In this document: in pieces, positions 135 through 62,068 of the stretch
Layout: every line of letters begins with the position of its first letter
Position numbering within the stretch: position 1 is the stretch's first letter
Origin: Escherichia phage PSD2002
Direction: 5' to 3' (one strand)
Length of the DNA stretch: 64,000 nt
Sequence record: OK335775.1
Notes under the pieces: model-generated
Databases searched by the model: none
What the model saw: the letters and a program-made list of their open reading frames with translations, nothing else
What the model was told of the DNA's origin: nothing
Translations under genes and position numbers: made by a program

Positions 135-994
135 TATACTGGAACTCCAATAGTTTGGGTTTCTACGACCTTAATTGCAAGCCTCATAGGATTGACAGAA
201 GAAGCGGTCGCGATAATATAGTTTGATGTATCGAATTTAAAATCTAGGGAATAAATTTCGTCATCATCTGAAGTTTGTCCACGTTTAATAACAGCGTATT
301 CAGTGGAATAAATCTTTCTAGCTTGGTTGTCGATAAACACAAGGTATTCTGAAGCTTTGTAAATGGTTTCGTTGGCATTCACTGCCGTAACTAAAAGTTT
401 GACCAATGAATACTGACCGGAATAAACCACCGGAATATCACGAGCGACAGAAGATATATTATATGTCTTATTTAATGGAACTCGTTTATCACCAAACATA
501 CTTTCAATTGAATAATCCCATACTGCAACGCCGTTTGTATCCGATACACACCATAAAAGAACTCGTGTATAAGGTGTTACGATACGCAAAGTCGAAGTTG
601 AATGGCTTGCAAAAGTATCCAATATACGGATTTCAAGATAATTAGTGGAAGAAATACTCCCGTTAGAGTTGATAATCTCGATTCCTTCACCGACTGCACC
701 TTTTACAGTGGTTAATACGATAGAACCGGTAGAAGCATCGATATCTACCAAAGAGCCTAAATCAACTGAACTTGCTTGGTCCGTATCACCAAATTTTTGA
801 TAGTAGCCTGTAGCGTGTAATTTCTGACCTGTTAATTCGCCGGTTAAAGCAGTTTTACGTTGGTCACCGAAAGTATTATAAATGTTGTTTAAGTCAGTGT
901 TCAGTTTAACACCGCCGTCATAAAGAATGTCGCCGGTGCTGGCATTACCAATTTCACCGACGTCAATTAGTTCTTTACCAGTTTGCTTAATCAT
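134..994 (-). CDS. 9: baseplate wedge tail fiber connector gp9
   Basis: 286 aa; N-terminus ...LIDVGEIGNASTGDILYDGG... resembles T4 gp9 (288 aa); synteny 10-9-8-7-6. Confidence 0.85.
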   Translation of the reverse strand: MIKQTGKELIDVGEIGNASTGDILYDGGVKLNTDLNNIYNTFGDQRKTALTGELTGQKLHATGYYQKFGDTDQASSVDLGSLVDIDASTGSIVLTTVKGAVGEGIEIINSNGSISSTNYLEIRILDTFASHSTSTLRIVTPYTRVLLWCVSDTNGVAVWDYSIESMFGDKRVPLNKTYNISSVARDIPVVYSGQYSLVKLLVTAVNANETIYKASEYLVFIDNQARKIYSTEYAVIKRGQTSDDDEIYSLDFKFDTSNYIIATASSVNPMRLAIKVVETQTIGVPV

Positions 995-1024
995 AGGTAT
1001 GCCTCATTATTGATATACTGTATT

Positions 1025-1056
1025 TATTAAACCCCGAAAGGGCCTTGCGGCCCTTA
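1025..1056 (-). other. intercistronic tandem hairpins between genes 8 and 9
   Basis: On the minus-strand RNA: GGGCC-GCAA-GGCCC then CCC-UUUC-GGG followed by U-rich sequence. Confidence 0.4.
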
Positions 1057-2061
1057 TTAGAATTCGAAGATAATGTTAATTTCTTCTGTTTGGTCCATGG
1101 AACGAATAACCGGAGGACGGTTTTCCATATAAATCATTTCACCGGAATGGCGGGAGAGGTCTATAACATCATAGTACTCTTTTTCGGCTTTAATGATCGG
1201 ATCGGATGGGTGAGCTTTAGCTTCTAATGGATTAGAGATTATCGAAAGCTGTCTAAATCCTTTGTTACCAGGAAGACTAAATTCAGGGAAGTAAACTGAA
1301 TCTAAGAATGCTTTAAAACGAATGGTATTGCCTTTAATACGATAAATCAATCCATAATCGTCTTGCTGCCAAGTAAGGTTATTCTCGTATCCCCAACGTT
1401 CTGGGTCTTCAGCAATTTCTTCCGGCCATGGAACCACAATATATTCATTAGTGCAACGGTTGATACTTACATCAGGTGGAATCTCATACAAATATTCCCA
1501 GAGATATCCATCACCTGTATCAACCATACCTTCCGTATCGCCTTGTCCTGCAGGGGCTTTAACCGATTGTACGTTTGAAGTCCATTTACCACCAAGTTTA
1601 ATACACTCAGTTTTATTATCAAGGGACAAAATAGAACATGTACCCGATTCAGGAATATCTACACAACGATAAACCATCCACCCAGCGCCGACATCAGTAC
1701 GGTTTTGCGGCTGGCTGTTCGCCACTACAATTTCACCAATCTGGAAAGTAAATGGGTTAGGATAAGAGGTATCGCCCCAGTCTTTGCGCGGGACAACACA
1801 ATCCAACATGCTCTTATAAACCTTAACACAACCCATCATGTTTGTCCAGACGTCTTCTACGCCCTCAGAATCATCTACAGGATATGGTGGTGCAAAACCC
1901 GGGTCATTTTCGTTATCGGCCCATGGTCGGGCCCTTCCGAAAGATACATACATGGTGTTCTGGTCTTCACCATCACCTATTGTTCTGTAAAAGTTGTACA
2001 TTTTTTCCGTTCTAAATTTTGAAGTAACAATAGAACGATAAACTACTGTAGAATTAATCAT
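1057..2061 (-). CDS. 8: baseplate wedge subunit gp8
   Basis: 334 aa, same length as T4 gp8; position between gp9 and gp7; stop/start overlap with gp7. Confidence 0.8.
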   Translation of the reverse strand: MINSTVVYRSIVTSKFRTEKMYNFYRTIGDGEDQNTMYVSFGRARPWADNENDPGFAPPYPVDDSEGVEDVWTNMMGCVKVYKSMLDCVVPRKDWGDTSYPNPFTFQIGEIVVANSQPQNRTDVGAGWMVYRCVDIPESGTCSILSLDNKTECIKLGGKWTSNVQSVKAPAGQGDTEGMVDTGDGYLWEYLYEIPPDVSINRCTNEYIVVPWPEEIAEDPERWGYENNLTWQQDDYGLIYRIKGNTIRFKAFLDSVYFPEFSLPGNKGFRQLSIISNPLEAKAHPSDPIIKAEKEYYDVIDLSRHSGEMIYMENRPPVIRSMDQTEEINIIFEF

Positions 2062-5000
2062 TAATTTTTACCTGAGTTGGAACTTTAGGGTCTCTAGGAT
2101 TTCCAATACCGTCTTTAAGACGCTTATCAACCAGTGCACGCCAATTGGCAAAGGTCACCACACTTTGGTCAAACAATGGACTATGCTTTTTAATACGTTC
2201 GTGTGGTAATTGACCTTGGAATACAGAGAAATCATTTTCTGCATCATAATCGGCAGGAATATCAAACGGTTCTCCTGCTTTAGGTCCTACGTTGTACGTT
2301 GGAGCACCTGTACGAGGGTCTCGTTCTATATTACCATCAAAACCTATTACAGCAACTCTATCATACCATTCAGATGGCAAACCTGAGTCCCATTTATAGT
2401 TCTTAAGGATATTAATAATAGTTTCTGTATGTTTTAGCGTTAAACCTACGTTAACAAACATAGAAAGCAAAGTTATACCTACAAAGCCGAAACCTACTGG
2501 ATGAACAAATCTCAAAACATCGTTGCGGTAACGAGAGGTAGGGAGATTAGACTTAATAGTCATAACATAATAAGAACGGTTACGGTTGATATAGTCGATA
2601 TTGTTACTCAAAAGCTCTTTACCACGTACACCCCGAACAATCATACCCTTGAACGAAGTACGTTCAGATTTAATTTCCTGACCGACTATAAAACGACCTA
2701 AAAGGTTATGAATGGTTAAACGCCATTGCAGTTTACCTTGTTTATAGTTACGTTCAATATAAGTAACATTACTACGTCCTGTAGGAGTATAAATGGTTTG
2801 GCCGACAATATCTTCACTGATATTATCAGATTCTACGATGATATCATATTCGATAGAGTTCTTGGACTCGATATCAATTTCGACATCTTCGTTGTAAAGC
2901 AATTTAAACAGGAATTTATATGAAGCTTCGGTACCTTTAGTAGACCAAAAATCGCTTTGGCGCGCCTGGAAAAAACGAACAACTTCATCGCGTTTTTCCT
3001 TCGACAAATAGATATTACGCTTATAGATTTCTGACCACAAATATTCCCATGAATCTTCTTCACGTGGGTATTGGTTACGAATAAGATTCAACAAATTATT
3101 ATAGTGTGTACCAGAACCATCACTAATAAATTGGAGATAGTATTCACAGAATTTTTCAAAGTTAGAATCTTGAAGCAAATAACTATCTGGAATCATTTTA
3201 ACCAGTAAAGGCTGGAGGTCTGGGTCCTGCTCACCAACTTCCTCTTTAGGTTTCCATGGGATTTCATGTTCTTGGTTTTGCAATTCTGCCGTAAACATAA
3301 TTTCTTTAGGCTTCCAAATAACACGGACTTCATCACGCACGCGATAGTCAAATTCAAAATATCCAACCAATTCGCCTGTAGATTTGTGAATCATCATTCC
3401 GGAAGAATATTTCTTAAAGCCATTAAACTCTATATTAGGAGATGTGACTTTACAAAAACCTTTATTCCAAATCTCATGAACAATACGTTCAGGTGAAGAA
3501 CCACTGTTCAGGTCGATAATTTTCTGGTATAAAGCATCATTATAAACAACCATCGCATGGTCGCCAGTAGTAATCCATGAACGGGTTCCATCACGACGAG
3601 ACCAACTAAAGAATGGTTCGGCATAATAAGCCATACGCCCAGGTTTAAATTCTTTGAAATCGGATTTAGAGTTAGACCTAAAACTCATCATCAAATAATG
3701 TTTATCGTGAATCCATTGTTCATCTTTAACATATTTAACGGCGGAGGTGACAATTTCAGGGTATTCCAAAGGAAGCTCAGAATCAACCTCTACTTCATAT
3801 CTAAAGTTGCTTGAACTGAAAAATAATTCCTCTCCGTCGGTAGACATGCTGGTATATCCATGCTCTATACGACGACGTTCTTCTTCTGTGTTTCCAAATA
3901 CACGAGTCCATGTATCAGTTGAAGTGTCTAACCAATAAACACCTTTGGATTCAGAATCAACCACATTGGATTCGACCGTAGGGTCCATTTTTTCTTCTTT
4001 AACTTCACCTGTAATTAAAGCAAATGTATGGCCTTGGATAGAATCTAATTTATAACAAACAGCTTTAGGGTTCCCTGTGATAGTCGAATATCCGCTTTCA
4101 AATATCTTCTCTCCATAAGTCGGAGAACTAGGGTCGGTGTCTATAGGGGCTTCAGATGTTTTTGCTTTATAAACTCTGTCTCTACCGGCAACATAAATGA
4201 ATTCATCAGATGCGCACATGGCCTCGGCAATAGTAGAAATAGGTAAAGGAAGCTTTGCATATGAACCGAATATCTCAATTTCAAATGGAAGGTCGATATC
4301 GCTACCTATTTTAGCAAAAGTTACATCTTGGGAACTAAATCTAACGTCATCAGCAGACCAACGAATATCACTTGATTTACGTCCGTAAAATATTTGGTCA
4401 TAACCTAGAACATAAGTGGTCGTGTCGGTTTGGTAGTGTACCGTACGTGAAACAGGGTTACCTACTCGGTCATTAAACAAACGGATATAATGCCAGTTCT
4501 GCCCTTTATCATTAGAAACCTTAGCGGTACTTTGGAATCTTTCTAAAAGGTAAAGTACGCCACCGAGTTCCATTAAAATAGAACGTTTAGGGTCTTTACA
4601 AACCGCTTGGATGCTTCCTTGGATTTCATGGAAACGGTCAGCTTTTAAAACATAATTTGATATAGATGACAAATGCGAATATGCAGGGGTAAAGTTAAAA
4701 TCTTCACTCATCAAAGAAGCCATAATGGCGTCAGTATTAAAGTTCACATAATTCTGATTATTTTTTGTGAATTTTTCTTCAATAAATTTATTAGACAAAG
4801 TGAATTCGCGCATATGCTCAAATGTATATGCGTTGGTAGAGAAAGTTTCAAATTCTTCAGTGTAAACCCATTCGGACTGCTCAAACCCCTGGGCGGCCAC
4901 CGCAACTCGCATTTTATAAAATGAATTAGGAGAAATGAATGCCTCTTCAAACCATTCGTTATTAGGGGTGTAACCTAAATTTCTCCAAAATAATCTATCG

Positions 5001-5149
5001 TCGGGAATTTCTACACCCGCATCCTTCGTTTGGGCCAGTTCTACGAAATAATAGAAGTTGGCGCCTACGTCATCCCAAAGAATGCTCACATGGTTAGCCG
5101 AGAGTTTATCAATTCTCAGACTAGTAACATAAGGCGCTTGTACAGACAT
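2054..5149 (-). CDS. 7: baseplate wedge initiator gp7
   Basis: 1031 aa (T4 gp7 is 1032 aa); synteny. Confidence 0.85.
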   Translation of the reverse strand: MSVQAPYVTSLRIDKLSANHVSILWDDVGANFYYFVELAQTKDAGVEIPDDRLFWRNLGYTPNNEWFEEAFISPNSFYKMRVAVAAQGFEQSEWVYTEEFETFSTNAYTFEHMREFTLSNKFIEEKFTKNNQNYVNFNTDAIMASLMSEDFNFTPAYSHLSSISNYVLKADRFHEIQGSIQAVCKDPKRSILMELGGVLYLLERFQSTAKVSNDKGQNWHYIRLFNDRVGNPVSRTVHYQTDTTTYVLGYDQIFYGRKSSDIRWSADDVRFSSQDVTFAKIGSDIDLPFEIEIFGSYAKLPLPISTIAEAMCASDEFIYVAGRDRVYKAKTSEAPIDTDPSSPTYGEKIFESGYSTITGNPKAVCYKLDSIQGHTFALITGEVKEEKMDPTVESNVVDSESKGVYWLDTSTDTWTRVFGNTEEERRRIEHGYTSMSTDGEELFFSSSNFRYEVEVDSELPLEYPEIVTSAVKYVKDEQWIHDKHYLMMSFRSNSKSDFKEFKPGRMAYYAEPFFSWSRRDGTRSWITTGDHAMVVYNDALYQKIIDLNSGSSPERIVHEIWNKGFCKVTSPNIEFNGFKKYSSGMMIHKSTGELVGYFEFDYRVRDEVRVIWKPKEIMFTAELQNQEHEIPWKPKEEVGEQDPDLQPLLVKMIPDSYLLQDSNFEKFCEYYLQFISDGSGTHYNNLLNLIRNQYPREEDSWEYLWSEIYKRNIYLSKEKRDEVVRFFQARQSDFWSTKGTEASYKFLFKLLYNEDVEIDIESKNSIEYDIIVESDNISEDIVGQTIYTPTGRSNVTYIERNYKQGKLQWRLTIHNLLGRFIVGQEIKSERTSFKGMIVRGVRGKELLSNNIDYINRNRSYYVMTIKSNLPTSRYRNDVLRFVHPVGFGFVGITLLSMFVNVGLTLKHTETIINILKNYKWDSGLPSEWYDRVAVIGFDGNIERDPRTGAPTYNVGPKAGEPFDIPADYDAENDFSVFQGQLPHERIKKHSPLFDQSVVTFANWRALVDKRLKDGIGNPRDPKVPTQVKIND

Positions 5150-5176
5150 TAAATCTCCTTAAACCTCCGAAGAGGC

Positions 5177-7135
5177 TTATATTGTAATTGGTTCCAACTC
5201 TATAGTTGTGTACTGAGGACGAAGGTCATCTTCAAATACGATTAAAGAACCGTCTTTGGTAAAGATGTTGTCTTGGTCTGGCCCTGCATAAAGTTCAATA
5301 GACTGGACTTCAAAACGATCGGAAGTAAGGCCTATTGCGGCGATATCCCAGAAAATAAAGTCCGAGTAATAATCAATTTCGCCAATAACATAGTAGACCG
5401 ATTGGTCTGCAGGCGCTGCCATTTTATCAAAGTCATCTCCGGTGTAAGGTTGGATGTATTGGTTTTCAATTACATCGCCAGGTCGGAAAGGACCTATAAC
5501 CATTTTACCATCGCCTCGTTCGTCTTTATCTGTGGCAACAATACGTACGTTGTAAGATTTAACAACATCAGATACGTTTGTTGGGACGAACTCAAATTCA
5601 CTAGAAGTTACAGAACGGTTGGTGTATTGATTATAGTATTTAATACCCGCTTCAGGTGTTTTGAAGAAGTTTAATACCTCGCGAACCATTGTTACCGTAG
5701 CCGAAGAGCCAAGGATACTGTGGTCTGCATTATCAATATAAGTCAGCATTTTAGACTTGGCAAATCCGTGGTTGAATATTTCAACTTCGTTAATATAATA
5801 ACGGTCTATTTGGGAAAGGATTTGGGCCGTTAACCATTGTTCGGATTCCTGTAATTTGTTCAGTGCATATGAAACCTTAATTTTATGCTTCAAGAACAAG
5901 TAGTCAGGAGAAATAACCGAAGGGGTAATAGGTGCCAAGTTAAATTCTGAAAGATAATTTTGGATATCTTCGCGTTGAACCGCAGTCAAATACAATCCTG
6001 ATTTAGGTTTAATGGTAACAAAGGCATAACCTGGTTTATTTGGGTCTGTAAAGGTTTGTACTGCTTGTACAATAGAACCAAATCGCTCCGAAACGAATGT
6101 ATCATAATCTGTACCGGTTACAGCACGCATCTGGGCTTCACGTTTAACTACAGCAAGTTCACGAATACGTTCAATATCTTCAGGGTCACCACCACCGTCA
6201 GCACCTACATAATCCGGGTTTTCATCGTAGTTTTCTGTAATTTTTTCAACCGTAATATATGCCAAAGAATCCGCATAACTAAAGTCCACTGCCCCGTTAG
6301 CAACTTCACCATCTGTACGAAGGTATTCTATAACAATGGTAGCATCTTTAACAGGTTTTAAACCACCAATATAATTAGCTTCTAATACCCCACCTGCAAC
6401 TGATTTTTCAGCAACACCTTCACCAAAGAAGAATTCAGTATTACCATCTACGGTTTCACGCATATAGTAAATTGTTGATGTACTACCAGCATGAACCATG
6501 GATTTATTAGTCCAGTTAGTCCATTCTGCGCCATCGACATAAAGTTTAACTTCCTGTCTATCAATATCCGGGTCACGAATAAGAATAGGAGTTTTAGGGT
6601 CATACTTAAGTTCAGTACGGATAATACGACCTTGTGCTAAAGATACGATAGGAAGATATTGGTTATTAACATCACGTACGGCAATAACGTTTTCCGTGGT
6701 AACAAAAGAATACGGGTCTGCTGAAGTATCACGGGCATAGGCCAAGAATTTAGTACCACGTGGGATACGAATATTCTTTTCATTCAGGGCTTGGGTACAG
6801 GTCAACATGATACTTGTTTTGGCTGCTGATTTAGAACTTGGCAAATAGCCGTTATCCTGTGCAGCCTGGACGACGGAGGAACGCAAGTTAGCAGTACCGA
6901 TGAAAGATTCATATACCGCGGTATTAGCAAACTGCTGCATATACAGGGTGTTGTAAGCTAACATGTCAATCAGGATATTCATTCGCGAACCAACGAAATC
7001 GTAATCCTTAAATTCGTCCTGGCTAGAAAGCCAATCGATAATATTCTTTTTAATCTCTTCAAACGTAGCTCCCACAAATACTTTTGGGATAGCGTTAACG
7101 GTTCTTGTTAATTGGTAATTCGTAGGAGTAGCCAT
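5177..7135 (-). CDS. 6: baseplate wedge subunit gp6
   Basis: 652 aa (T4 gp6 is about 660 aa); synteny between gp7 and the gene 5 region. Confidence 0.85.
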   Translation of the reverse strand: MATPTNYQLTRTVNAIPKVFVGATFEEIKKNIIDWLSSQDEFKDYDFVGSRMNILIDMLAYNTLYMQQFANTAVYESFIGTANLRSSVVQAAQDNGYLPSSKSAAKTSIMLTCTQALNEKNIRIPRGTKFLAYARDTSADPYSFVTTENVIAVRDVNNQYLPIVSLAQGRIIRTELKYDPKTPILIRDPDIDRQEVKLYVDGAEWTNWTNKSMVHAGSTSTIYYMRETVDGNTEFFFGEGVAEKSVAGGVLEANYIGGLKPVKDATIVIEYLRTDGEVANGAVDFSYADSLAYITVEKITENYDENPDYVGADGGGDPEDIERIRELAVVKREAQMRAVTGTDYDTFVSERFGSIVQAVQTFTDPNKPGYAFVTIKPKSGLYLTAVQREDIQNYLSEFNLAPITPSVISPDYLFLKHKIKVSYALNKLQESEQWLTAQILSQIDRYYINEVEIFNHGFAKSKMLTYIDNADHSILGSSATVTMVREVLNFFKTPEAGIKYYNQYTNRSVTSSEFEFVPTNVSDVVKSYNVRIVATDKDERGDGKMVIGPFRPGDVIENQYIQPYTGDDFDKMAAPADQSVYYVIGEIDYYSDFIFWDIAAIGLTSDRFEVQSIELYAGPDQDNIFTKDGSLIVFEDDLRPQYTTIELEPITI

Positions 7136-17358: not shown

Positions 17359-17435
17359 GGCCCTGTAGCTCAATGGTTAGCAGCAGTCCCCTCATAAGGG
17401 AAAGGTTACCAGTTCAAATCTGGTCCGGGTCACCA
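17359..17435 (+). tRNA. tRNA, anticodon CAT (Met/Ile-lysidine type)
   Basis: Acceptor stem GGCCCTG/CCGGGTC, T-arm ACCAG-TTCAAAT-CTGGT, anticodon loop CTCATAA, encoded CCA. Confidence 0.75.
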
Positions 17436-17440
17436 ACTAT

Positions 17441-17515
17441 GTCCCGCTGGTGTAATGGATAGCATACGATCCTTCTAAGTTTGCGGTCCTGGTTCGATCC
17501 CAGGGCGGGATACCA
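17441..17515 (+). tRNA. tRNA-Arg (anticodon TCT)
   Basis: Acceptor GTCCCGC/GCGGGAT, T-arm CCTGG-TTCGATC-CCAGG, anticodon loop CTTCTAA, encoded CCA. Confidence 0.8.
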
Positions 17516-50405: not shown

Positions 50406-50604
50406 ACATGATTTTCATATTGGCGATGGCCGGTTCGGTAATGTAGAATGGGACGTGGATGGTTCTTGGTATACCGGAACTATGTATGCCACTTCTGAAT
50501 ATTCTGAAGGTGTTTCATGGGCCATGGAACTTGACGACGTGTTTGCTTCTTCCGAAGAAATGCTAGAATATGTTGAACAAACAATTCGTGAGAACAATAC
50601 ATGA
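50380..50604 (+). CDS. small acidic protein (start uncertain)
   Basis: ORF overlapping the upstream gene end; alternative ATG at 50398. Confidence 0.35.
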   Translation: MLIMMKMYKHDFHIGDGRFGNVEWDVDGSWYTGTMYATSEYSEGVSWAMELDDVFASSEEMLEYVEQTIRENNT

Positions 50605-52283
50605 AAACGTTTAAGTTAAAGAAAGTAACGTATAAAAATATTATGTCTGTAGGCCAGCAACCTATTACAATCCAACTTGATAAGGTCCAAAAGACCTTAG
50701 TCACCGGTAAAAATGGCGCTGGGAAATCTACGTTCCTTGAAGCGGTAACATTTGCTCTGTTTGGTAAGCCTTTTCGTGATGTTAAGAAAGGGCAATTAAT
50801 TAACTCAAGTAACAAGAAAGACCTTTTGGTCGAACTGTGGATGGAATATGATGGCAAAGAATACTATATCAAACGCGGGCAAAAACCCAACGTTTTTGAA
50901 ATCTCTTGTGGCGGTGAACGTCTTGATGAATCTGCCAGCAGTAAAGACTTCCAAGCAGAATTTGAACAGCTTATCGGAATGTCATATGCCAGTTTCAAAC
51001 AGATTGTCGTACTTGGTACAGCAGGGTATACCCCTTTCATGGGTTTGTCGACCCCTGCGCGCCGAAAGCTTGTGGAAGACCTGTTAGAGGTTTCTGTATT
51101 AGCGGATATGGACAAGTTGAACAAATCTTTGATTCGTGAGACTAATAGCCAAATCCAGGTAATCGACGTTAAACAGGATTCTATTACCCAGCAAATTAAA
51201 ATTTATAATGACAACGAAGAACGTCAGCGTAAATTATCCGGCGAGAACGCAGCACGTCTACAGTTAATGTACGATGAGCTAGTTAAAGAAGCCAGGACTG
51301 CGAAGGGCAATATAGAAAAACTGACTGATGAATTACTCAATGTCATCGTCGATGATGACCCTAGCAACTCTATGAGTGACCTGAGCAATAAAGGATTTGC
51401 AATCAAGAATGATATGGCAACCTTTACTAAGGTCGTGAAATTATACGAAACCGGTGGTAGTTGTCCTACATGTATGCAAGGATTGGAAGAACATGGAAAC
51501 ATCCTTACTAAAATTAAGGATAAGAACTTTGAGCTTCAAAAATCTTTGGATAAGATTAATGAGCAGTACCAAGAACTCAAGCTCATTAAGGACCAAGTAA
51601 CCGAACAACGTAATAAAGCGCTGGCTATTAAATCTCAGATAGCTACTCATAAGCAACAAGCCATTACTGCCGTAGAGAAAGCTAAAAAAGTTAAAGTATT
51701 AATCGACCAAGCAGCTGCTGAGTTCGTAAGTAATGCCGAAGAGATTGCCGCGCTTCAAGCAGAGCTTGATAAAATCGTCTCTACCAAATCGTCCTTGGTA
51801 ATGGAAAAATATCATCGTGGAATTCTGACAGAAATGTTGAAGGACACAGGTATTAAAGGTTCCATTATTAAGAAATACATTCCTATCTTTAATAAGCAGA
51901 TAAATTCTTATTTGAAGATTATGGAAGCGGACTACGTCTTTACACTAGACGAAGAGTTCAATGAGACGATTAAATCACGTGGACGTGAAGACTTTAGTTA
52001 TGCTTCATTTTCACAGGGTGAGAAAGCACGTATTGATATCGCACTACTTTTTACATGGCGCGATATTGCTTCTAAGGTATCAGGTGTTAATATCAGCACG
52101 TTAATTCTTGATGAGGTATTTGACAGTGCTACTGACGCTGAAGGCGTTAAGACCATTGCAACCATCTTGAATAGCCTTGAGGATACGAACGTGTTCATTA
52201 TCTCTCACCGAGACCATGACCCACAAGCTTATGGCCAACATCTTCAAATGAAGAAAGTTGGACGATTCACGGTGATGGAATGA
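50601..52283 (+). CDS. 46: recombination endonuclease subunit gp46 (Rad50-like ATPase)
   Basis: 560 aa; Walker A GKNGAGKST; long central coiled coil; C-terminal LILDEVFD. Confidence 0.9.
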   Translation: MKTFKLKKVTYKNIMSVGQQPITIQLDKVQKTLVTGKNGAGKSTFLEAVTFALFGKPFRDVKKGQLINSSNKKDLLVELWMEYDGKEYYIKRGQKPNVFEISCGGERLDESASSKDFQAEFEQLIGMSYASFKQIVVLGTAGYTPFMGLSTPARRKLVEDLLEVSVLADMDKLNKSLIRETNSQIQVIDVKQDSITQQIKIYNDNEERQRKLSGENAARLQLMYDELVKEARTAKGNIEKLTDELLNVIVDDDPSNSMSDLSNKGFAIKNDMATFTKVVKLYETGGSCPTCMQGLEEHGNILTKIKDKNFELQKSLDKINEQYQELKLIKDQVTEQRNKALAIKSQIATHKQQAITAVEKAKKVKVLIDQAAAEFVSNAEEIAALQAELDKIVSTKSSLVMEKYHRGILTEMLKDTGIKGSIIKKYIPIFNKQINSYLKIMEADYVFTLDEEFNETIKSRGREDFSYASFSQGEKARIDIALLFTWRDIASKVSGVNISTLILDEVFDSATDAEGVKTIATILNSLEDTNVFIISHRDHDPQAYGQHLQMKKVGRFTVME

Positions 52284-52973: not shown

Positions 52974-53672
52974 ATGAAATTCTCTAAAGAAACTCTGAAC
53001 ATTCTGAAAAACTTCTCCGGTATTAACCCAGGTATCATGCTTAAACCTGGTAACACTATTCTAACTCGTTCAGTAACGGGTGCAAGTTATGGTGAAGCTA
53101 CTGTAAATGACACCTTTGATATCGAAGCCGCAATCTACGACCTGAACGGCTTCTTAAGTATTCTGTCATTGGTATCTGAAAGTGCTGAAGTTTCGGTAAG
53201 TGAAGACCAAACCACTTTAATTATTAAAGACCAACGTTCAACTATTAAGTGGCCTATTGCCGACCCAAGCACAATTGCATTCCCAAGCAAAGCTATTCCA
53301 TTCCCGGTGGCTGAAGTTATTTTTGACCTTAAAGCCGAAGATTACCAGCAGTTGATGCGTGTGTCCTCTGGACTGAGTATTGATACATTTGCTATTACTG
53401 TAGACAATGGTAAAATTGTAATCAATGGCTACAAACAAGTTGATGATAAGGACCTGGCCCGTCCATTGTATTCCTTAGTGGTTGCAGACCATGATGGCCC
53501 TGAATTCAAATTCATTATCAACAAAACTAATATGAAAATGATGCCTGCCGATTACCATGTATTGTTATGGGCCCGTGGTGAAGGCCAGGACGCTCGTTTC
53601 GCAGCCAAGTTTGAAGGTTCACAAGCTTCTTATGTATTGGCTATGGAAGCAGGCTCAAGCCACTCGTTCTAA
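52974..53672 (+). CDS. 45: sliding clamp gp45
   Basis: 232 aa; N-terminus resembles T4 gp45 (LKNF..IN.GIMLK ... AIYDLNGFL.ILSLV). Confidence 0.9.
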   Translation: MKFSKETLNILKNFSGINPGIMLKPGNTILTRSVTGASYGEATVNDTFDIEAAIYDLNGFLSILSLVSESAEVSVSEDQTTLIIKDQRSTIKWPIADPSTIAFPSKAIPFPVAEVIFDLKAEDYQQLMRVSSGLSIDTFAITVDNGKIVINGYKQVDDKDLARPLYSLVVADHDGPEFKFIINKTNMKMMPADYHVLLWARGEGQDARFAAKFEGSQASYVLAMEAGSSHSF

Positions 53673-54250
53673 TGTATATATGTTATCATAATACGATAAC
53701 CAACACTAAAACCAAGTGTGTCTATCATTATTTTGGTAGACACCGTGTTACTGCTGAAGAATACTACGGTACAGGTAAGTTTGTTAAGAAATGCAAACGA
53801 GAAAATGCTATTACTCCAGGTCTTTGGGAGTTTTGTGTTGAAGTTATCCATACAGTGGATACGTTTAAAGAAGCCAAGATTATTGAAGAAGAGCTTGTTA
53901 AAGAAGGCATATCAAAATATGGTATCCTTTGTGTTAATAAGAATCCTGGTGGTGATGGCGGTGTGGATTACCACACCGAAGAATCTAAACGTAAAATGTC
54001 AGAAACTAGAACAGGAAAATCAAGAATATTTTCCGAAAGTCATAAAGAAAATTTAAGTAAACGAGCCAGAAAATACTCTGATGTTTGGTCCGAACCTGTA
54101 TATTCAAATCTTAAAACCATTTGGCTGGAAACAGGTATGTTAAAACGCGGACGGTTTAGTACGCTTTTACAAAAATATGGGTATAATTATTCTGCGAATG
54201 AATTGAATAAAATTGTTAAACATTTTAATGAGGAAAATAATAATGAGTAA
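53672..54250 (+). CDS. GIY-YIG-like (seg-type) homing endonuclease inserted between genes 45 and 44
   Basis: N-terminal YICY ... VYHYFG (degenerate GIY-x10-YIG); C-terminal basic module similar to the HNH endonuclease at 30192; T4 has no gene between 45 and 44. Confidence 0.5.
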   Translation: MYICYHNTITNTKTKCVYHYFGRHRVTAEEYYGTGKFVKKCKRENAITPGLWEFCVEVIHTVDTFKEAKIIEEELVKEGISKYGILCVNKNPGGDGGVDYHTEESKRKMSETRTGKSRIFSESHKENLSKRARKYSDVWSEPVYSNLKTIWLETGMLKRGRFSTLLQKYGYNYSANELNKIVKHFNEENNNE

Positions 54251-55220
54251 AGTAGTAAATGGTTTAACTATTAATGAAAACGACTTCATGTGGGAACAGA
54301 AATATCGTCCAGGTACTTTATCTGAGTGTATTCTGCCTGCGCATGATAAAGAAACCCTCCAAGCCATTGTTGATAAGGGCCTAATCCCTAACATTATCCT
54401 AGTCTCTGCTTCACCAGGTACAGGTAAAACTACCGTAGCTAAAGCATTGTGTGCTGATACAAATTCAGACATGTTGTTTGTTAACGGTTCTGACTGCCGT
54501 ATTGATTTCGTTCGTAATGAACTTACTCGTTTTGCATCTTCCAAATCTATCGAAGGTAAGCGTAAGGTAATTGTTATCGACGAATTCGACCGCGCCGGTG
54601 TTGCTGAAGCTCAACGTCACCTTCGTTCGTTCTTAGAAGCCTATTCCTCAAACTGTTCTGTAATTATTACAGCAAACAATATTGATGGTATTATCGGCCC
54701 ACTTCAATCCCGTTGTCGTGTTATTAAATTTGGTGAAGCCACTCCGGCCGACCAAACATCCATGATGAAAGAAATGATTCATCGTGCTGTAGCAATCTGT
54801 AAAAACGAAAATATCGAAGTCGAAGACCTTAAAGTTATTGCTGCCTTAGTTAAACAAAACTTTCCTGACTTCCGTAAAACAGTTAACCAACTGGACCGTT
54901 ACTCATCCAGTGGTAAAATCGATACAGGCATTTTGAGTATTGTAATGAATACCAATTCGCCTATCGATGAAGTAGTGGCTGCACTTAAAGATAAAAACTT
55001 TAAAGAACTCCGTGCATTAGCTCCACGTCATGTCAACGATTATTCCAACTTTATTATGTCGCTGGCTAACGAACTCTATGGTAAATTGCCTGGGCCAAGC
55101 ATTGTTAGAATGTACGAAATTGTCGGTGAAAATAACCAATACCACGGTATTGCGGCTAACCCAGAAATTCACATGACTTATCTGTTCATCCAACTTGCTC
55201 TGGAGCTCCAATGGCTATAA
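54243..55220 (+). CDS. 44: clamp loader large subunit gp44
   Basis: Closely resembles T4 gp44 (EQKYRP ... SPSPGTGKTTVAKAL ... VIVIDEFDR); start at the ATG overlapping the upstream stop. Confidence 0.9.
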   Translation: MSKVVNGLTINENDFMWEQKYRPGTLSECILPAHDKETLQAIVDKGLIPNIILVSASPGTGKTTVAKALCADTNSDMLFVNGSDCRIDFVRNELTRFASSKSIEGKRKVIVIDEFDRAGVAEAQRHLRSFLEAYSSNCSVIITANNIDGIIGPLQSRCRVIKFGEATPADQTSMMKEMIHRAVAICKNENIEVEDLKVIAALVKQNFPDFRKTVNQLDRYSSSGKIDTGILSIVMNTNSPIDEVVAALKDKNFKELRALAPRHVNDYSNFIMSLANELYGKLPGPSIVRMYEIVGENNQYHGIAANPEIHMTYLFIQLALELQWL

Positions 55221-56374: not shown

Positions 56375-56393
56375 GGGACTTCGGTCCCTTTTT
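56375..56393 (+). terminator. UUCG hairpin with T-tract upstream of gene 43
   Basis: GGGAC-TTCG-GTCCC followed by TTTTT. Confidence 0.55.
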
Positions 56394-56451
56394 GGAGTAT
56401 AATAATTCATCAACAAACAAAAGACAATCACTCGTCTATAAAGGAAATGAA

Positions 56452-58159
56452 ATGCAAGAATTCTATTTGACAGTCGAACAAATCGGTGATAATATTCTCG
56501 AACGTTACATCGATAAAAATGGTAACGAACGTAGTCGTGAAGTTCCATACAAGCCTACAATGTTTATGCATGCTAATCCAGAGCAAGCCGTAAAATACAT
56601 TGATATCTATGGTAAGGGTTGTGTTAAGAAAGAATTCGATTCTATGCGTGATGCATCCCAATGGATGAAACGTATGGATGATATGGGTCTCGAAGCCCTG
56701 GGTATGGACGACTATAAATTAGCCTATTTGTCTGATACCTATCGTAAAGAAATCAAATATGATTCTTCTAAGATTCGTATTGCTAACTTCGACATCGAGG
56801 TAACATCTCCTGATGGATTCCCTGAACCAGCTCAGGCTAAACATCCTATCGATGCCATTACCCACTACGACTCGATTGACGATAAATTCTATGTATTCGA
56901 CCTTTTAGTTTCGCCTTATGGTACTGTTGAAGAGTGGTCGATTAAAATCGCTGAGAAACTCCAAGACGAAGGTGGTGACGAAGTTCCACAGGAAATCATT
57001 GACAAAATCGTTTATCTTCCGTTTAATTCTGAAGAAGAAATGATGCTTGAGTACTTGAATTTCTGGCAACAGAAAACTCCTGTGATTTTGACTGGATGGA
57101 ACGTTGAGTCGTTTGACGTACCGTACGTTTATAACCGTCTGAAAAATCTGTTCGGTGAGAACACTGCTAAGCGATTAAGCCCACATCGTAAAACTCGCGT
57201 TAAAGTTATTGAGAACATGTACGGTGCTCGTGAAATCATTACATTGTTCGGTATCTCTGTTCTGGATTATATCGACCTTTATAAAAAATTCAGCTTCACC
57301 AACCAGCCTTCTTATTCTCTGGATTATGTTTCTGAATATGAATTGAAAGTGGGTAAGTTGAAATATGATGGTCCAATCTCTAAGTTACGTGAGACGAACC
57401 ACCAACGATATATTTCCTATAACATTATCGACGTATATCGTGTTGTGCAAATTGATATGAAACGCCAGTTCATTCTTCTGAGTTTGGACATGGGTTATTA
57501 TGCCAAGATGCAGATTCAGTCGGTGTTCAGTCCAATTAAGACTTGGGACGCTATTATCTTTAATAGCCTTAAAGAACAAGGCAAGGTAATTCCACAAGCT
57601 CGTTCGCACGTGGTCCAACCTTATCCTGGCGCTTTCGTTAAGGAACCGATTCCTAACGCTTACAAATACGTAATGAGTTTCGACCTTACATCTCTGTACC
57701 CGAGTATCATTCGACAAGTGAATATAAGCCCAGAGACCATCGCAGGGACATTCGCTAACGCACCGATACATGAATATATTGCTGGAACTGCTCAGCGTCC
57801 TAGCGACACCTACAGTTGCTCTCCTAACGGCATGATGTATTATAAAGACCGTGAAGGTGTGATTCCTACAGAAATCACCAAGGTATTCTTGCAGCGTAAA
57901 GAACATAAAGGTTATATGCTTGCAGCTCAACGTAATGGTGAGTTAATTAAAGAAGCATTGGAAAATCCTAATCCCTCAGTTGATAGTCCACTGGATATCG
58001 ATTATCGTTTTGACTTCTCCGACGAAATCAAAGCCCAGATTAAAGCACTGTCAGCGCCTTCTTTAAGAGAAATGTTGAAGAAAGCCGAGCTCACTGAAGT
58101 TGCAGGTAACACTGCTCAGATTAACCGTAAGTTGCTTATCAACAGCCTGTATGGTGCGT
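56452..58159 (+). CDS. 43: DNA polymerase gp43, exon 1 (N-terminal exonuclease domain and start of polymerase domain)
   Basis: Starts MQEFYLTVEQIGDNILERYIDKNGNE after AAAGGAAA; ends ...NRKLLINSLYGAL; the unspliced frame hits TAA at 58168-58170. Confidence 0.85.
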
Positions 58160-58389
58160 TAACCAAATAACTCGGCGCACTTTAAACTATGTGAATTCAG
58201 GGAACATCTCTAGTAGACAATCCTGAGCGAAGCCTCTATGAGGAACGTGCAACGACTATCCGAAAGGAGTACACCCAAGTGGGTGGAAGCGCATAGCATC
58301 GAAAGATGATGATATAGTCTGCTCTGCATGGCGACATGCAGCTGGATATAATTCCGGGCTGAGCTTAACGACCTCAGTTGAACACCGTG
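58160..58389 (+). ncRNA. putative self-splicing group I intron (ORF-less, 230 nt) in gene 43
   Basis: Exon GUGCGU pairs with intron GCGCAC (58175-58180) with U.G at the splice site; GACUA (58254) and UAGUC (58315) form a P7-like pairing; terminal G at 58389; splicing restores GAL-GNVWFRYYD. Confidence 0.65.
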
Positions 58390-59393
58390 TGGGTAACGTC
58401 TGGTTCCGCTACTATGATTTGCGTAATGCAACTGCAATCACACTGTTCGGTCAAATGGCCCTCCAATGGATTGAACGTAAGGTTAACGAATATCTGAATA
58501 GCGTGTGTAAAACTGAAAACCAGAAGTTCGTGCTCTATGGTGATACTGACTCCATTTATGTTAAGGCAGATGCAATCATCAATAAAGTAGGCGAAGATAA
58601 ATTTCGTGACACTAACCACTGGGTCGACTTCTTAGATAAATTTGCACGTGAACGTATGGAACCAGCTATTGATGCAGGCTTCCGTGAGATGTGCGAGTAT
58701 ATGAACAACAAACAGCACTTGATGTTCATGGACCGAGAAGCTATCGCAGGTCCTCCACTTGGTTCTAAAGGTCTTGGTGGATTCTGGACAGGCAAGAAAC
58801 GTTATGCACTGAACGTTTGGGACATGGAAGGTACTCGTTATGCCGAACCGCACTTGAAAATCATGGGCCTTGAAACTCAGAAATCAAGTACACCTAAAGC
58901 AGTTCAGAAAGCTCTGAAGGAATGTATCCGTCGTATGCTTCAGGAAGGCGAGGCATCTTTGCAAGAATATTTCAAACAGTTTAATAAGGAATTTAACGAA
59001 CTCAACTATGTAAGCATTGCAGCAGTATCCAGTGCTAACAACATCGAGAAATATAATGAAGGTGGATTCCCGGGTTCTAAATGTCCATACCACATCAAAG
59101 GTTGCTTAGCTTACATGCGTGCTTCTGCAGGTGATTTGACTATGCCTCGTATCGTTGATGGTGAAAAGGTATATGTACTGCCACTTAAAGAAGGCAACCC
59201 GTTTGGTGAAGCTTGTATGGCATGGCCGTCAGGTATTGAACTTCCGGTTCAGATTCGTGACCAAGTCCTCCGTTGGATGGACTACAACGTACTGTTCCAA
59301 AAGACCTTTATCAAGCCTCTGACCGGTTTTACTGAGTCTGCTAAAATCGACTACGAGAAAAAAGCAACATTATTTGATATGTTCGACTTTTAA
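58390..59393 (+). CDS. 43: DNA polymerase gp43, exon 2 (C-terminal polymerase domain)
   Basis: GNVWFRYYDLRNATAI ... YGDTDSIYV (polymerase motif C) ... SLFDMFDF; no SD upstream of the in-frame GTG. Confidence 0.85.
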
Positions 59394-60334: not shown

Positions 60335-60394
60335 GCAATACCAATTTATTAAAAATAGTGTATAATGTACCTACATTCACTTGAGGAACAGATA

Positions 60395-62068
60395 ATGAAA
60401 AAGGTTGTTATTTTAGGCGCGGGTCTTGGCTCACGGTTGTATCCAATTACCAACGAAATCCCGAAGGTACTGGTTAACTACAAACAACATACTGTATTAA
60501 AACATTTGTATGATTTGTATAGTAACCAATCAGATGAAATTATTCTGGTTATTCACAGCAAATTTAACGACCTCGTTAAAGGCTATATTAAATCCATTAA
60601 CATGATTAATAGTGATAAGCCTAAATTCACTATTCGTAACGTAGATGTGGCCAATGGTTCTGCTCATGCTATTGATTGCATTGCTGAAGATATCATTGGG
60701 CACAACGTCTTGTTTAACTGGTGTGATATTATTCCTGAAGGGCATAAAGTTGAGTGGGATAACGACTACTGTTATACCTATGGGACTGACTGTCGTTTTA
60801 CATTTGAAGAGCCATACTTGCGCGAAATTGGCACAGGTGGTGGTGTAGTTGGTTTGTATCAGGTTGCTAATTGGGCAGGTTTCAACCGTTCTAATTATGG
60901 CGAAGACCTGGCCGACAACCTGGATTCGATGGTCCATTTGACCGAACGTAAGCTGGACTTTGTGGTTGATGTCGGTGACAAATTGAAACTGGCTAAGGCC
61001 CATGAAGATTCTGAAATTAACCGTGAATTTAATAAATTAGAGTTCACTGAGAATCTGGCTATTAAAGTACCAACTAACGAATTGGGTAAAGAAATCCAAT
61101 CTAAAGAAATCAATTGGTATAATTCTATTGATTCTGAATTTGTTCCGAGCATTGTAGACTTTGCTCCAGGTGAATTCATTAAAATGGAACGTATCTTTGG
61201 TCGTACCATGGCAGATGCCTACCGGTTTATGGCTAAAGAAACTAAAGTCCTCATGGTTTATAAGGTCATTAGTGCATTACGTTCATTCGGTGGAACTATT
61301 GATAACCCATCTGATGAGCAATGGTATTCTGATGTTAAGAAAGAAGTACTAGATAAGGTCCTTATTCGTAATGCATCAATTTCTGGTCTGATTGAAGGCT
61401 TTGCTCCACAAGGTATTACCCATGTTAACGACTTCAAGGTAGGCGACCCTGAAAAACTTCTTCGCCATGCACTAGAAATTCTGTCTGAACATAAAGAACC
61501 GTACCAACTTATTCATGGTGACCCGCACTACAGTAATATTATGCTGTCGGACGAAGGTGATATTAAAATCATCGACCCACGTGGTTATTTTGGTAATAGT
61601 TCTAAAGGCCCTGCGATTTATGATGAAGCTAAGGTGCTTTATTCTATCGATGGTTATGACAAATTTAACTCCGACCCTCTATGGGGTGGCTTAACTCGTA
61701 ACGGAACTCGAGTATTCGTTGATATTGAAAAGGTTATGCCTTTAGATGATATTCCAATGTGTACATTTAAGCACAAGCTCTGGATTGCCGTTATCTGGAT
61801 GGCATTAGCAGGTTACTTTAAGAATAATCCTCTGAAAGCTCTAGGTGCTTATTACAACGGTCTATACCAACTGAGTGTGCTGCTGAAGCGGCATCCTCGT
61901 AAGCGTAAGCTTATTACAGGTGAATTTGTCGATGAAGTTCGTGACCCTATCACGGCTCAAATTATCACTCGTTGTCCTGATAAGTGGGTTTTGCTTGACC
62001 AGGAAACTGGTGTAAAATATAAACCTACAGGTTCTACTGAACTCCACAAACAATGGAAGAAAATTTAA
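60395..62068 (+). CDS. bifunctional sugar-1-phosphate nucleotidyltransferase / anomeric sugar kinase (APH-ChoK fold)
   Basis: N-terminal ILGAGLGSRLYPITNEIPKVLV (sugar nucleotidyltransferase G-x-G-x-R signature); C-terminal LIHGDPHYSNIML ... IKIIDPRG (aminoglycoside/choline kinase-type catalytic loop). Confidence 0.65.
   Translation: MKKVVILGAGLGSRLYPITNEIPKVLVNYKQHTVLKHLYDLYSNQSDEIILVIHSKFNDLVKGYIKSINMINSDKPKFTIRNVDVANGSAHAIDCIAEDIIGHNVLFNWCDIIPEGHKVEWDNDYCYTYGTDCRFTFEEPYLREIGTGGGVVGLYQVANWAGFNRSNYGEDLADNLDSMVHLTERKLDFVVDVGDKLKLAKAHEDSEINREFNKLEFTENLAIKVPTNELGKEIQSKEINWYNSIDSEFVPSIVDFAPGEFIKMERIFGRTMADAYRFMAKETKVLMVYKVISALRSFGGTIDNPSDEQWYSDVKKEVLDKVLIRNASISGLIEGFAPQGITHVNDFKVGDPEKLLRHALEILSEHKEPYQLIHGDPHYSNIMLSDEGDIKIIDPRGYFGNSSKGPAIYDEAKVLYSIDGYDKFNSDPLWGGLTRNGTRVFVDIEKVMPLDDIPMCTFKHKLWIAVIWMALAGYFKNNPLKALGAYYNGLYQLSVLLKRHPRKRKLITGEFVDEVRDPITAQIITRCPDKWVLLDQETGVKYKPTGSTELHKQWKKI

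Follow-up and report, generated by a model that had tools for sequence, protein, structure and literature searches.

Gene 43, which encodes the DNA polymerase gp43, is interrupted in Escherichia phage PSD2002 (sequence record OK335775.1) by a 230-nt element that lacks a forward open reading frame (ORF) and lies at positions 58160-58389 of the 64,000-nucleotide (64-kb) stretch analysed here, referred to throughout as the window. Judged by its anatomy, this element is very probably a functional self-splicing group I intron whose removal would yield normal gp43. The + strand ORF of gene 43 (56392-58170) closes, in the window translation, with ...NRKLLINSLYGALTK at the TAA at 58168-58170, the terminus of this frame being ...LINSLYGALTK, and a second + strand ORF in a different frame opens at GTG 58389 and reads (V)GNVWFRYYDLRNATAI... 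(58389/58392). That the polymerase frame breaks here and resumes 230 nt further on had been noticed in an earlier reading of the letters alone (the sequence-only reading), and alignment with the intron-less phages QL01 and Bp7 bears this out; the insertion is exact and is the sole insertion in the comparison.

The true start of the polymerase is ATG 56452, in agreement with the polymerase start of QL01, and exon 1 is a single contiguous reading frame, collinear with QL01 and Dhakavirus-type throughout. Joining 56452-58159 to 58390-59393 gives 2712 nt, 903 codons and one terminal stop, equal in size to the coding sequences (CDSs) of QL01 and Bp7 (2712 nt, 903 aa); residue numbering follows RB69 gp43, likewise of 903 aa. 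With a slash marking the splice junction, the predicted ligated letters are ...GGTGCGT/TGGGTAAC... and the corresponding peptide is ...SLYGALGNVWFR...; a 99-aa stretch across the junction matches the unsplit polymerase of Shigella phage PSD9 at 100% identity, and the junction region is in one piece in 2291 of the 2518 phage records that have it. The interruption falls in codon 570 (Leu, T/TG), in phase 1, three codons past the tyrosine of PolB motif B (KxxxNSxYG), the context at the insertion being KxxxNSLYGAL/GN.

Anatomy and covariation of the intron

The covariance-model scan that the sequence-only reading had suggested as a check returned a match to Rfam RF00028 (Intron_gpI) at 75.9 bits, against a gathering threshold of 50 bits, with an E value of 1.8e-17 for the whole window; the match spans 58139-58341 and the full length of the model (1-253). 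At gathering thresholds the window gave three Rfam matches, two tRNAs and this one. Together with a core that can be folded and an ORF that is restored, this score supports the group I reading. The helices were placed by hand from the Rfam alignment and the sequence (Table 1), and standard pairing is found at 69 of 69 pairs in the window copy. The 5' splice site follows U58159, which forms a U.G pair with G58175 at the junction, and G58153.U58181 lengthens P1 to 7 bp; the guide GCGCAC (58175-58180) pairing with exon GUGCGU (58154-58159), both halves of the P7-like pairing, the P9-like hairpin and the terminal G at 58389 were all located where the sequence-only reading had put them. G58389 is the only G-ending boundary that preserves the frame, given a U at -1, and the 3' splice position is common to the window, Escherichia phage vB_EcoM_G2285 (G2285), and phages 25, AS-gz and phiAS4. 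Since P7.1 and P7.2 are both present, between P7 and P3', the intron is assigned to subgroup IA, which includes the T4 introns; its direct sequence homology is to td introns, and it may be IA2-like, as the T4 td and nrdB introns are. An unconstrained minimum free energy (MFE) fold recovers P3, P4, P5, P6a, P7.1, P7.2, P8, P9 and P9.1.

In the predicted reaction the guide at 58175-58181 would pair with the last seven exon bases to form P1, and an external guanosine held in P7 would attack after U58159; G58389 would then take the G site, and exon 2, held in register by P10 (58170-74 with 58390-94), would be joined to exon 1. The product would be an mRNA encoding normal 903-aa gp43, and in the unspliced transcript the intron TAA would presumably, by analogy with other phage introns, stop ribosomes ahead of the catalytic core. 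There is no forward ORF within the 230-nt intron, which thus carries no homing endonuclease gene (HEG) of the T4 td/I-TevI type. A minus-strand 75-aa ORF with a TTG start (58210-58437) runs over the intron; it has no counterpart in G2285 and was rejected as a gene.

The helices were tested by covariation in a MAFFT alignment built without structure information from ten introns, namely those of the window and G2285, three from Aeromonas gene 43, three from podophage-type genomes and two ORF-less td introns. It is clear that the proposed pairs stand apart from displaced ones: standard pairs fill 89.7% of cells, against 36-43% when the 3' partners are slid by 1-3 columns, pairs changed on both sides number 33 against 9-14, and the covariation score of 0.366, against 0.08-0.10, is reached by none of 500 shuffles. 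P4, P5, P6, P7, P7.2, P9 and P9.2 are 100% paired across the ten introns, and double-changed pairs occur in P6a (4), P7.2 (4/5), P8 (4), P9 (3) and P9.2 (5). P7 is invariant in all ten and is therefore uninformative for covariation; the J8/7-to-P7 segment is likewise invariant across the family. Exon GGUGCGU and guide GCGCAC are common to the window, G2285, phage 25 and AS-gz; phiAS4 and Aes508 have exon GGAGCUU and guide GAGCUCC, and their P1 shows two double compensatory changes (G-C to U-A and U-A to A-U). Furthermore, the P10 pair C58173-G58391 becomes U-A in phiAS4, again a compensatory change, and all 10 differences between the window and G2285 introns lie at unpaired positions or keep the pair (A-U to G.U).

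Table 1. Positions of gene 43, its intron, the intron helices and the donor-type tract in the window, and of the gene 43 cassette in G2285
Feature	Position	Strand	Remarks
Gene 43 (PolB DNA polymerase) exon 1	56452..58159	+	1708 nt; final base is T of the Leu570 codon
Donor-type tract	58144..58427	+	intron with at most ~18 nt of exon 1 and ~40 nt of exon 2
P1	58153-58159 / 58175-58181	+	exon GGUGCGU with guide GCGCACU; 7 bp
Intron	58160..58389	+	230 nt, ORF-less, IA-type core, without P2
In-frame TAA	58168..58170	+	3 codons into intron
P10	58170-58174 / 58390-58394	+	ACUCG with exon 2 start UGGGU; 5 bp
Catalytic core region	58187..58308	+	
P3	58187-58193 / 58290-58296	+	
P4	58197-58202 / 58221-58226	+	
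P5	58207-58209 / 58215-58217	+	
P6	58227-58228 / 58247-58248	+	
P6a	58233-58236 / 58240-58243	+	
P7	58254-58258 / 58315-58319	+	GACUA with UAGUC; pseudoknot helix, G-binding site
P7.1	58259-58261 / 58266-58268	+	GAAA loop
P7.2	58272-58276 / 58281-58285	+	
P8	58297-58300 / 58305-58308	+	
3' peripheral domain	58324..58378	+	
P9	58324-58330 / 58335-58341	+	CTGCATG-GCGA-CATGCAG, GCGA loop
P9.1	58342-58346 / 58353-58357	+	
P9.2	58358-58363 / 58373-58378	+	
Terminal guanosine (omega-G), 3' splice site	58389	+	
Gene 43 exon 2	58390..59393	+	TG completes Leu570, then GGT AAC (Gly-Asn)
G2285 gene 43 cassette	1493-5294; ORF 3057-3890; 43B restart 3890; intron 4059-4290		MK327933 extract numbering

Relatives of the intron

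Over its last 14 kb the window shares 96-97.6% identity with the Dhakavirus coliphages Bp7, QL01, WG01 and IME08, in which gene 43 is one uninterrupted 2712-nt CDS. By this likeness the genome is Dhakavirus-type, JS98/Bp7-like, and not RB69-like. The RB69-like setting assumed in the sequence-only reading thus does not hold for PSD2002, yet a near-identical intron does occur in an RB69-like phage, the Mosigvirus G2285 (MK327933). This is the only near-identical copy among 50,697 phage records (96.9% identity); it has the same insertion site and the same recoded flanking exon bases as the window copy, and differs in an L8 loop that is 2 nt longer. Its record carries the tag "Intron_gpI" and describes the polymerase as "unable to determine intron/exon boundaries", and the paper describing G2285 makes no mention of the intron. 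The longer L8 also opens a spurious ORF from ATG 4137 within the intron into exon 2 (MK327933 extract numbering), which is an annotation trap.

A lower-stringency blastn search with the intron matched 861 records, among them the gene 43B introns of the Aeromonas salmonicida phages phiAS4, Aes508, Aes512, Aes517 and AS-gz, at 70-73% over bases 9-185. The exon context in the Aeromonas phages, ...NSLYGA-L/GNNFF..., has the break in the same codon and phase as in the window, and the same phase-1 site is used in the window, G2285, phage 25, AS-gz, phiAS4 and Aes508, the last annotated in its record as "including group I intron". A gapped pattern for P1 and the internal guide sequence (IGS) matched one IMG/VR contig (161,475 bp), of phage 25 type by its length, bearing a 347-nt intron with P1 and P10 sequences as in the window and a seg-like endonuclease gene just upstream; this intron corresponds to intron 25.g43B. 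The sequence-only reading had rightly mentioned that some Aeromonas relatives of T4 have insertions in gene 43, and 25.g43B occupies the same site (PMC2993671); it has been described as having no HEG of its own and as a predicted user of a free-standing one (PMC2993671, PMC2988022). The Rfam RF00028 scores of the copies are 83.6 for G2285, 75.9 for the window, 73.8 for AS-gz, 69.4 for phiAS4 and 64.2 for the phage 25-type contig. Petrov, Ratnayaka and Karam (2010, J Mol Biol 395:457) reportedly demonstrated self-splicing of 25.g43B, and cleavage by the endonuclease at intron-free homologues of the site.

The Aeromonas introns have, like that of the window, an IA-type core and no internal ORF, but at 271-347 nt they exceed its 230 nt, and their P6, P7.1 and P9.1 are extended. 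They sit in the 43B cistron of a split gene, usually beside a seg-like GIY-YIG gene, whereas gene 43 of the window is otherwise contiguous. The hosts of the introns differ too, the window being from a coliphage of another genus than the Aeromonas Tulanevirus phages phiAS4, Aes508 and AS-gz. In Aes508 and AS-gz, 43B is according to the annotation also broken by a split intein with a VSR-like endonuclease ORF between its parts, so that the polymerase gene there has up to four kinds of insertion (Aes508 3319-6280, AS-gz 3769-6285, extract numbering). A putative gene 43 intron has also been mentioned for coliphage JSE, a Krischvirus (PMC2993671). There, too, non-coding sequence breaks up gene 43 of a coliphage; however, the insert is 527 nt long and lies between a 403-aa N-terminal CDS and a C-terminal CDS that begins near ...APMHEYINK, which puts it past motif A. 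It was rejected as the same element, being at another site and giving no Rfam match at the gathering threshold.

An exact 24-mer from the 5' region of the intron had no match in IMG/VR, and the gapped P1/IGS pattern had none in the metagenome collection and revealed no further coliphage copies; the element appears rare in these data. A literature search found no description of a gene 43 intron matching the window element in Dhakavirus, Mosigvirus or coliphages. It is nevertheless not a new kind of element, because the site, the family and the HEG-less state were described for phage 25 in 2010 and a coliphage copy has been tagged; what is new is limited to the exact boundaries, the Dhakavirus-type host, the intron-only allele and a bounded co-conversion tract between genera.

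Identity to other introns is uneven along the element. The P1 region is nearest to AS-gz and phage 25, and the P3-P7.2 core to the introns of podophage-type genomes (82-93%) and of Aeromonas phages (78-86%). The segment from P9.1 through P9.2 to the 3' end (58342-58389), in contrast, is 81-83% identical, almost without gaps, to the ORF-less T-even td introns of Salmonella phage SEA1 and Escherichia phage N2, whereas its identity to the Aeromonas gene 43 introns is only 58-65% and 17-18 columns are gapped; measured from P9 onward, identity to td introns is 81-94%. The T4 td intron (IA2) and the ORF-less SEA1 and N2 td introns share the core plan, including P7.1 and P7.2, and that of SEA1 is of similar size (250 nt), but they lie in a different gene, have a different P1, possess P2, and are only ~60% identical to the window over P3-P7.2; the classical T4 td intron furthermore carries I-TevI in P6, whereas the window intron is ORF-less. 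This uneven identity is compatible with a possible exchange of domains between introns in a T-even background. The ORF-less td introns of ~250 nt were seen in N2 (ON645936; region 2974-4525) and SEA1 (region 2974-3217; both in extract numbering), a Tequatrovirus and a Gelderlandvirus. The N2 record also names an I-TevI gene that stands by itself on the other strand, ~0.6 kb downstream of the second td exon, as though it had moved out of the intron.

The endonuclease partner and the donor-type tract

In G2285 the order is 43A (506 aa), a 277-aa GIY-YIG ORF, the 43B restart (MNLTYTQDF...), the intron and the rest of 43B. This ORF, on the complement of MK327933 31306-32139, shares 44% identity along its entire length with the seg-like endonuclease of phiAS4 (E 1.5e-76) and 41% with the endonuclease of the phage 25-type contig, and its Pfam matches to GIY-YIG and SegE fall just under threshold. 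By gene order and sequence the G2285 cassette is evidently the phage 25 arrangement transplanted into a coliphage. Searches by tblastn with the G2285 and phiAS4 endonucleases found no homologue in the 64-kb window (best E 0.38). Since exon 1 is contiguous and the endonuclease was not found, the window holds an intron-only allele and not a composite of HEG and intron like that of phage 25 (IC-UTS, seg-like HEG, intron).

A 192-aa ORF (53672-54250, +) between gene 45 (52974-53672) and gene 44 (54213-55220) has a Seg/GIY-YIG-like N-terminus (ICYHN...YHYFG) and a weak NUMOD3 match (E 0.006, under threshold); possibly it encodes a free-standing homing endonuclease that has degenerated. It is unlikely to mobilise the intron: it is ~4 kb away, has no similarity to seg43-type enzymes, and has a same-sized 'unknown' ORF at that position in the intron-less Bp7. 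In the same region gene 46 is intact in the window (50601-52283, 560 aa), while the Bp7 annotation divides it into pieces of 1239 and 183 nt, after which comes a homing endonuclease gene on the minus strand, without counterpart in the window (Bp7 602-3001, extract numbering); here again members of the genus differ in whether they have a mobile nuclease gene. Elsewhere in the window, a 567-aa ORF (60365-62068, +) downstream of gene 43 and imm joins an N-terminal nucleotidyl-transferase domain (PF00483, E 2.5e-8) to an APH-like kinase domain (PF01636, E 1.8e-5); its product may supply an activated sugar with which phages of this group hypermodify their DNA. Two adjacent tRNA genes (17359-17515, +) are tRNA-Met (CAT) and tRNA-Arg (TCT), on which Rfam and ARAGORN agree.

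About 300 sites separate G2285 from QL01 and Bp7 in the region equivalent to 43B. With the last base of exon 1 (58159) numbered -1 and the first base of exon 2 (58390) numbered 0, the window carries the G2285 base only at -16, -15, -11, -2, -1, +1, +28, +29, +31, +32, +34 and +37, and at two isolated sites far downstream. The changes in this tract are all synonymous, being TCC to AGC, CTT to CTG, GCA to GCG and CTT to T/TG, and downstream GAC CTC AGG AAC to GAT TTG CGT AAT. P1 and P10 depend on sites -2 to +1, and -16 to -11 and +28 to +37 lie outside the pairing of intron with exon; the +28 to +37 patch is native Mosigvirus sequence, as in the intron-less JS09. No intron-less phage record was found with these recoded flanks, the best match to the spliced junction being 93.2%. 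The tract has the pattern expected of gene conversion, at the DNA level, from a Mosigvirus-like donor, and being sharply bounded it documents what would be a recent transfer between coliphage genera.

The most likely history of the intron in PSD2002 is DNA-level homing in a mixed infection with such a donor, in which, as we infer, the transfer was started by an endonuclease. The free-standing endonuclease of the donor would cut the intron-less Dhakavirus allele, and repair would copy the intron and a few dozen flanking bases and leave the endonuclease gene behind. Precedents for an endonuclease-less intron at a site targeted by a neighbouring HEG are T4 mobE acting on the nrdB intron and a cyanophage psbA intron with its free-standing HEG (PMC2988022); the window differs from both in that the partner endonuclease is absent and that mobility is here proposed from sequence comparison. 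The co-conversion footprint and the gene order of G2285 appear to fit the trans or collaborative homing model.

Alternative explanations and implications

It could be supposed that nothing is spliced and that the insert is an untranslated spacer, as in phage 44RR, with a 43A-like polypeptide (...GALTK) and a 43B-like one (from GTG 58389) assembling into a split polymerase. Such polymerases exist and work in Aeromonas phages 44RR and 25 (PMC2988022), and both ORFs of the window are open. However, the break is inside catalytic motif B, ~170 nt downstream of the known 43A/43B split, and the spacer would have to be one that scores 75.9 bits as a group I intron, has helices with compensatory changes and ends at boundaries that restore the uninterrupted protein exactly. 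In addition the downstream part is poorly equipped for translation: no ATG, GTG or TTG occurs in its frame from the stop near 58239 to GTG 58389, a start which itself overlaps the 3' splice site, and the bases ahead of it (UUGAACACC) are not Shine-Dalgarno-like, as the sequence-only reading had also found. A split polymerase is thus extremely unlikely here. Alternatively, the element could be a decayed, non-splicing relic, making gene 43 a pseudogene, or one dependent on a helper protein. The intron is small, lacks P2 and an ORF, and has an unremarkable MFE energy, all of which would suit a relic; yet the phage needs gp43, its essential replicase, and the two exons are undamaged and obviously constrained. 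No core helix is broken, P7 and the segment joining it to J8/7 are invariant in the family, the differences from the G2285 copy spare the pairs, and the copies in Aeromonas phages all have lower Rfam scores. Decay is accordingly very unlikely.

A real intron might also have been gained without an endonuclease, by reverse splicing followed by reverse transcription and recombination, by plain recombination, or by descent with precise loss elsewhere. No seg43-type gene was found in the window and the donor-type tract is short and mosaic, both of which speak for such a gain, and plain recombination is frequent between co-infecting T-even-like phages. Reverse splicing is disfavoured because donor-type variants lie at -16 to -11 and +28 to +37, outside P1 and P10; vertical descent would need precise loss and reversion of the flanks in at least 48 close relatives, and no intron-less record has the recoded flanks; and the closest copy, in G2285, adjoins a HEG homologous to the intron-linked HEG of Aeromonas phages. 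Gain without an endonuclease is therefore unlikely, though it has to be reckoned with.

Some points weigh against our preferred reading of a self-splicing intron acquired by homing. The energy of the MFE fold (z = -1.38) is not distinguishable from that of shuffled sequence; an unremarkable z is usual for pseudoknotted ribozymes, and it adds no independent support. P1, P10 and P9.1 pair at only 55-76% across the whole alignment, and for P1 and P10 the evidence comes from just five introns, those of gene 43, because the other introns have other exons and peripheral stems. The splicing of the window copy is itself a prediction from its sequence. As to the transfer, the tract is a mosaic in which a few internal sites are Dhakavirus-type or unique, and therefore G2285 itself is not the donor; plain recombination without an endonuclease cut would, moreover, leave the same footprint.

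For annotation, gene 43 of PSD2002 should be given as join(56452..58159,58390..59393) and not as two polymerase fragments, and the same correction to exact boundaries applies to MK327933, whose record calls them undeterminable. The window offers a clean natural case of an endonuclease-less intron within the most conserved motif of an essential replicase. We raise tentatively, as a possibility that could well prove wrong, that the intron parted from its endonuclease and crossed from Tulanevirus to Mosigvirus to Dhakavirus with the same P1 and P10 target, its 3' domain swapped for one of td type, and that the allele now acts as a 'vaccine'. If this is true, the intron-only allele destroys the target of a seg43-like endonuclease and so shields the replicase gene from marker exclusion, protection from competing phages being gained without the cost of carrying a nuclease. 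The finding bears on a statement of 2010 according to which convincing evidence was lacking that such elements cross between clusters of T4-related phages (PMC2993671). With HEG and intron in G2285, the intron only in PSD2002, and neither in QL01 and Bp7, these phages make a simple system for trans-homing and intron-mediated immunity.

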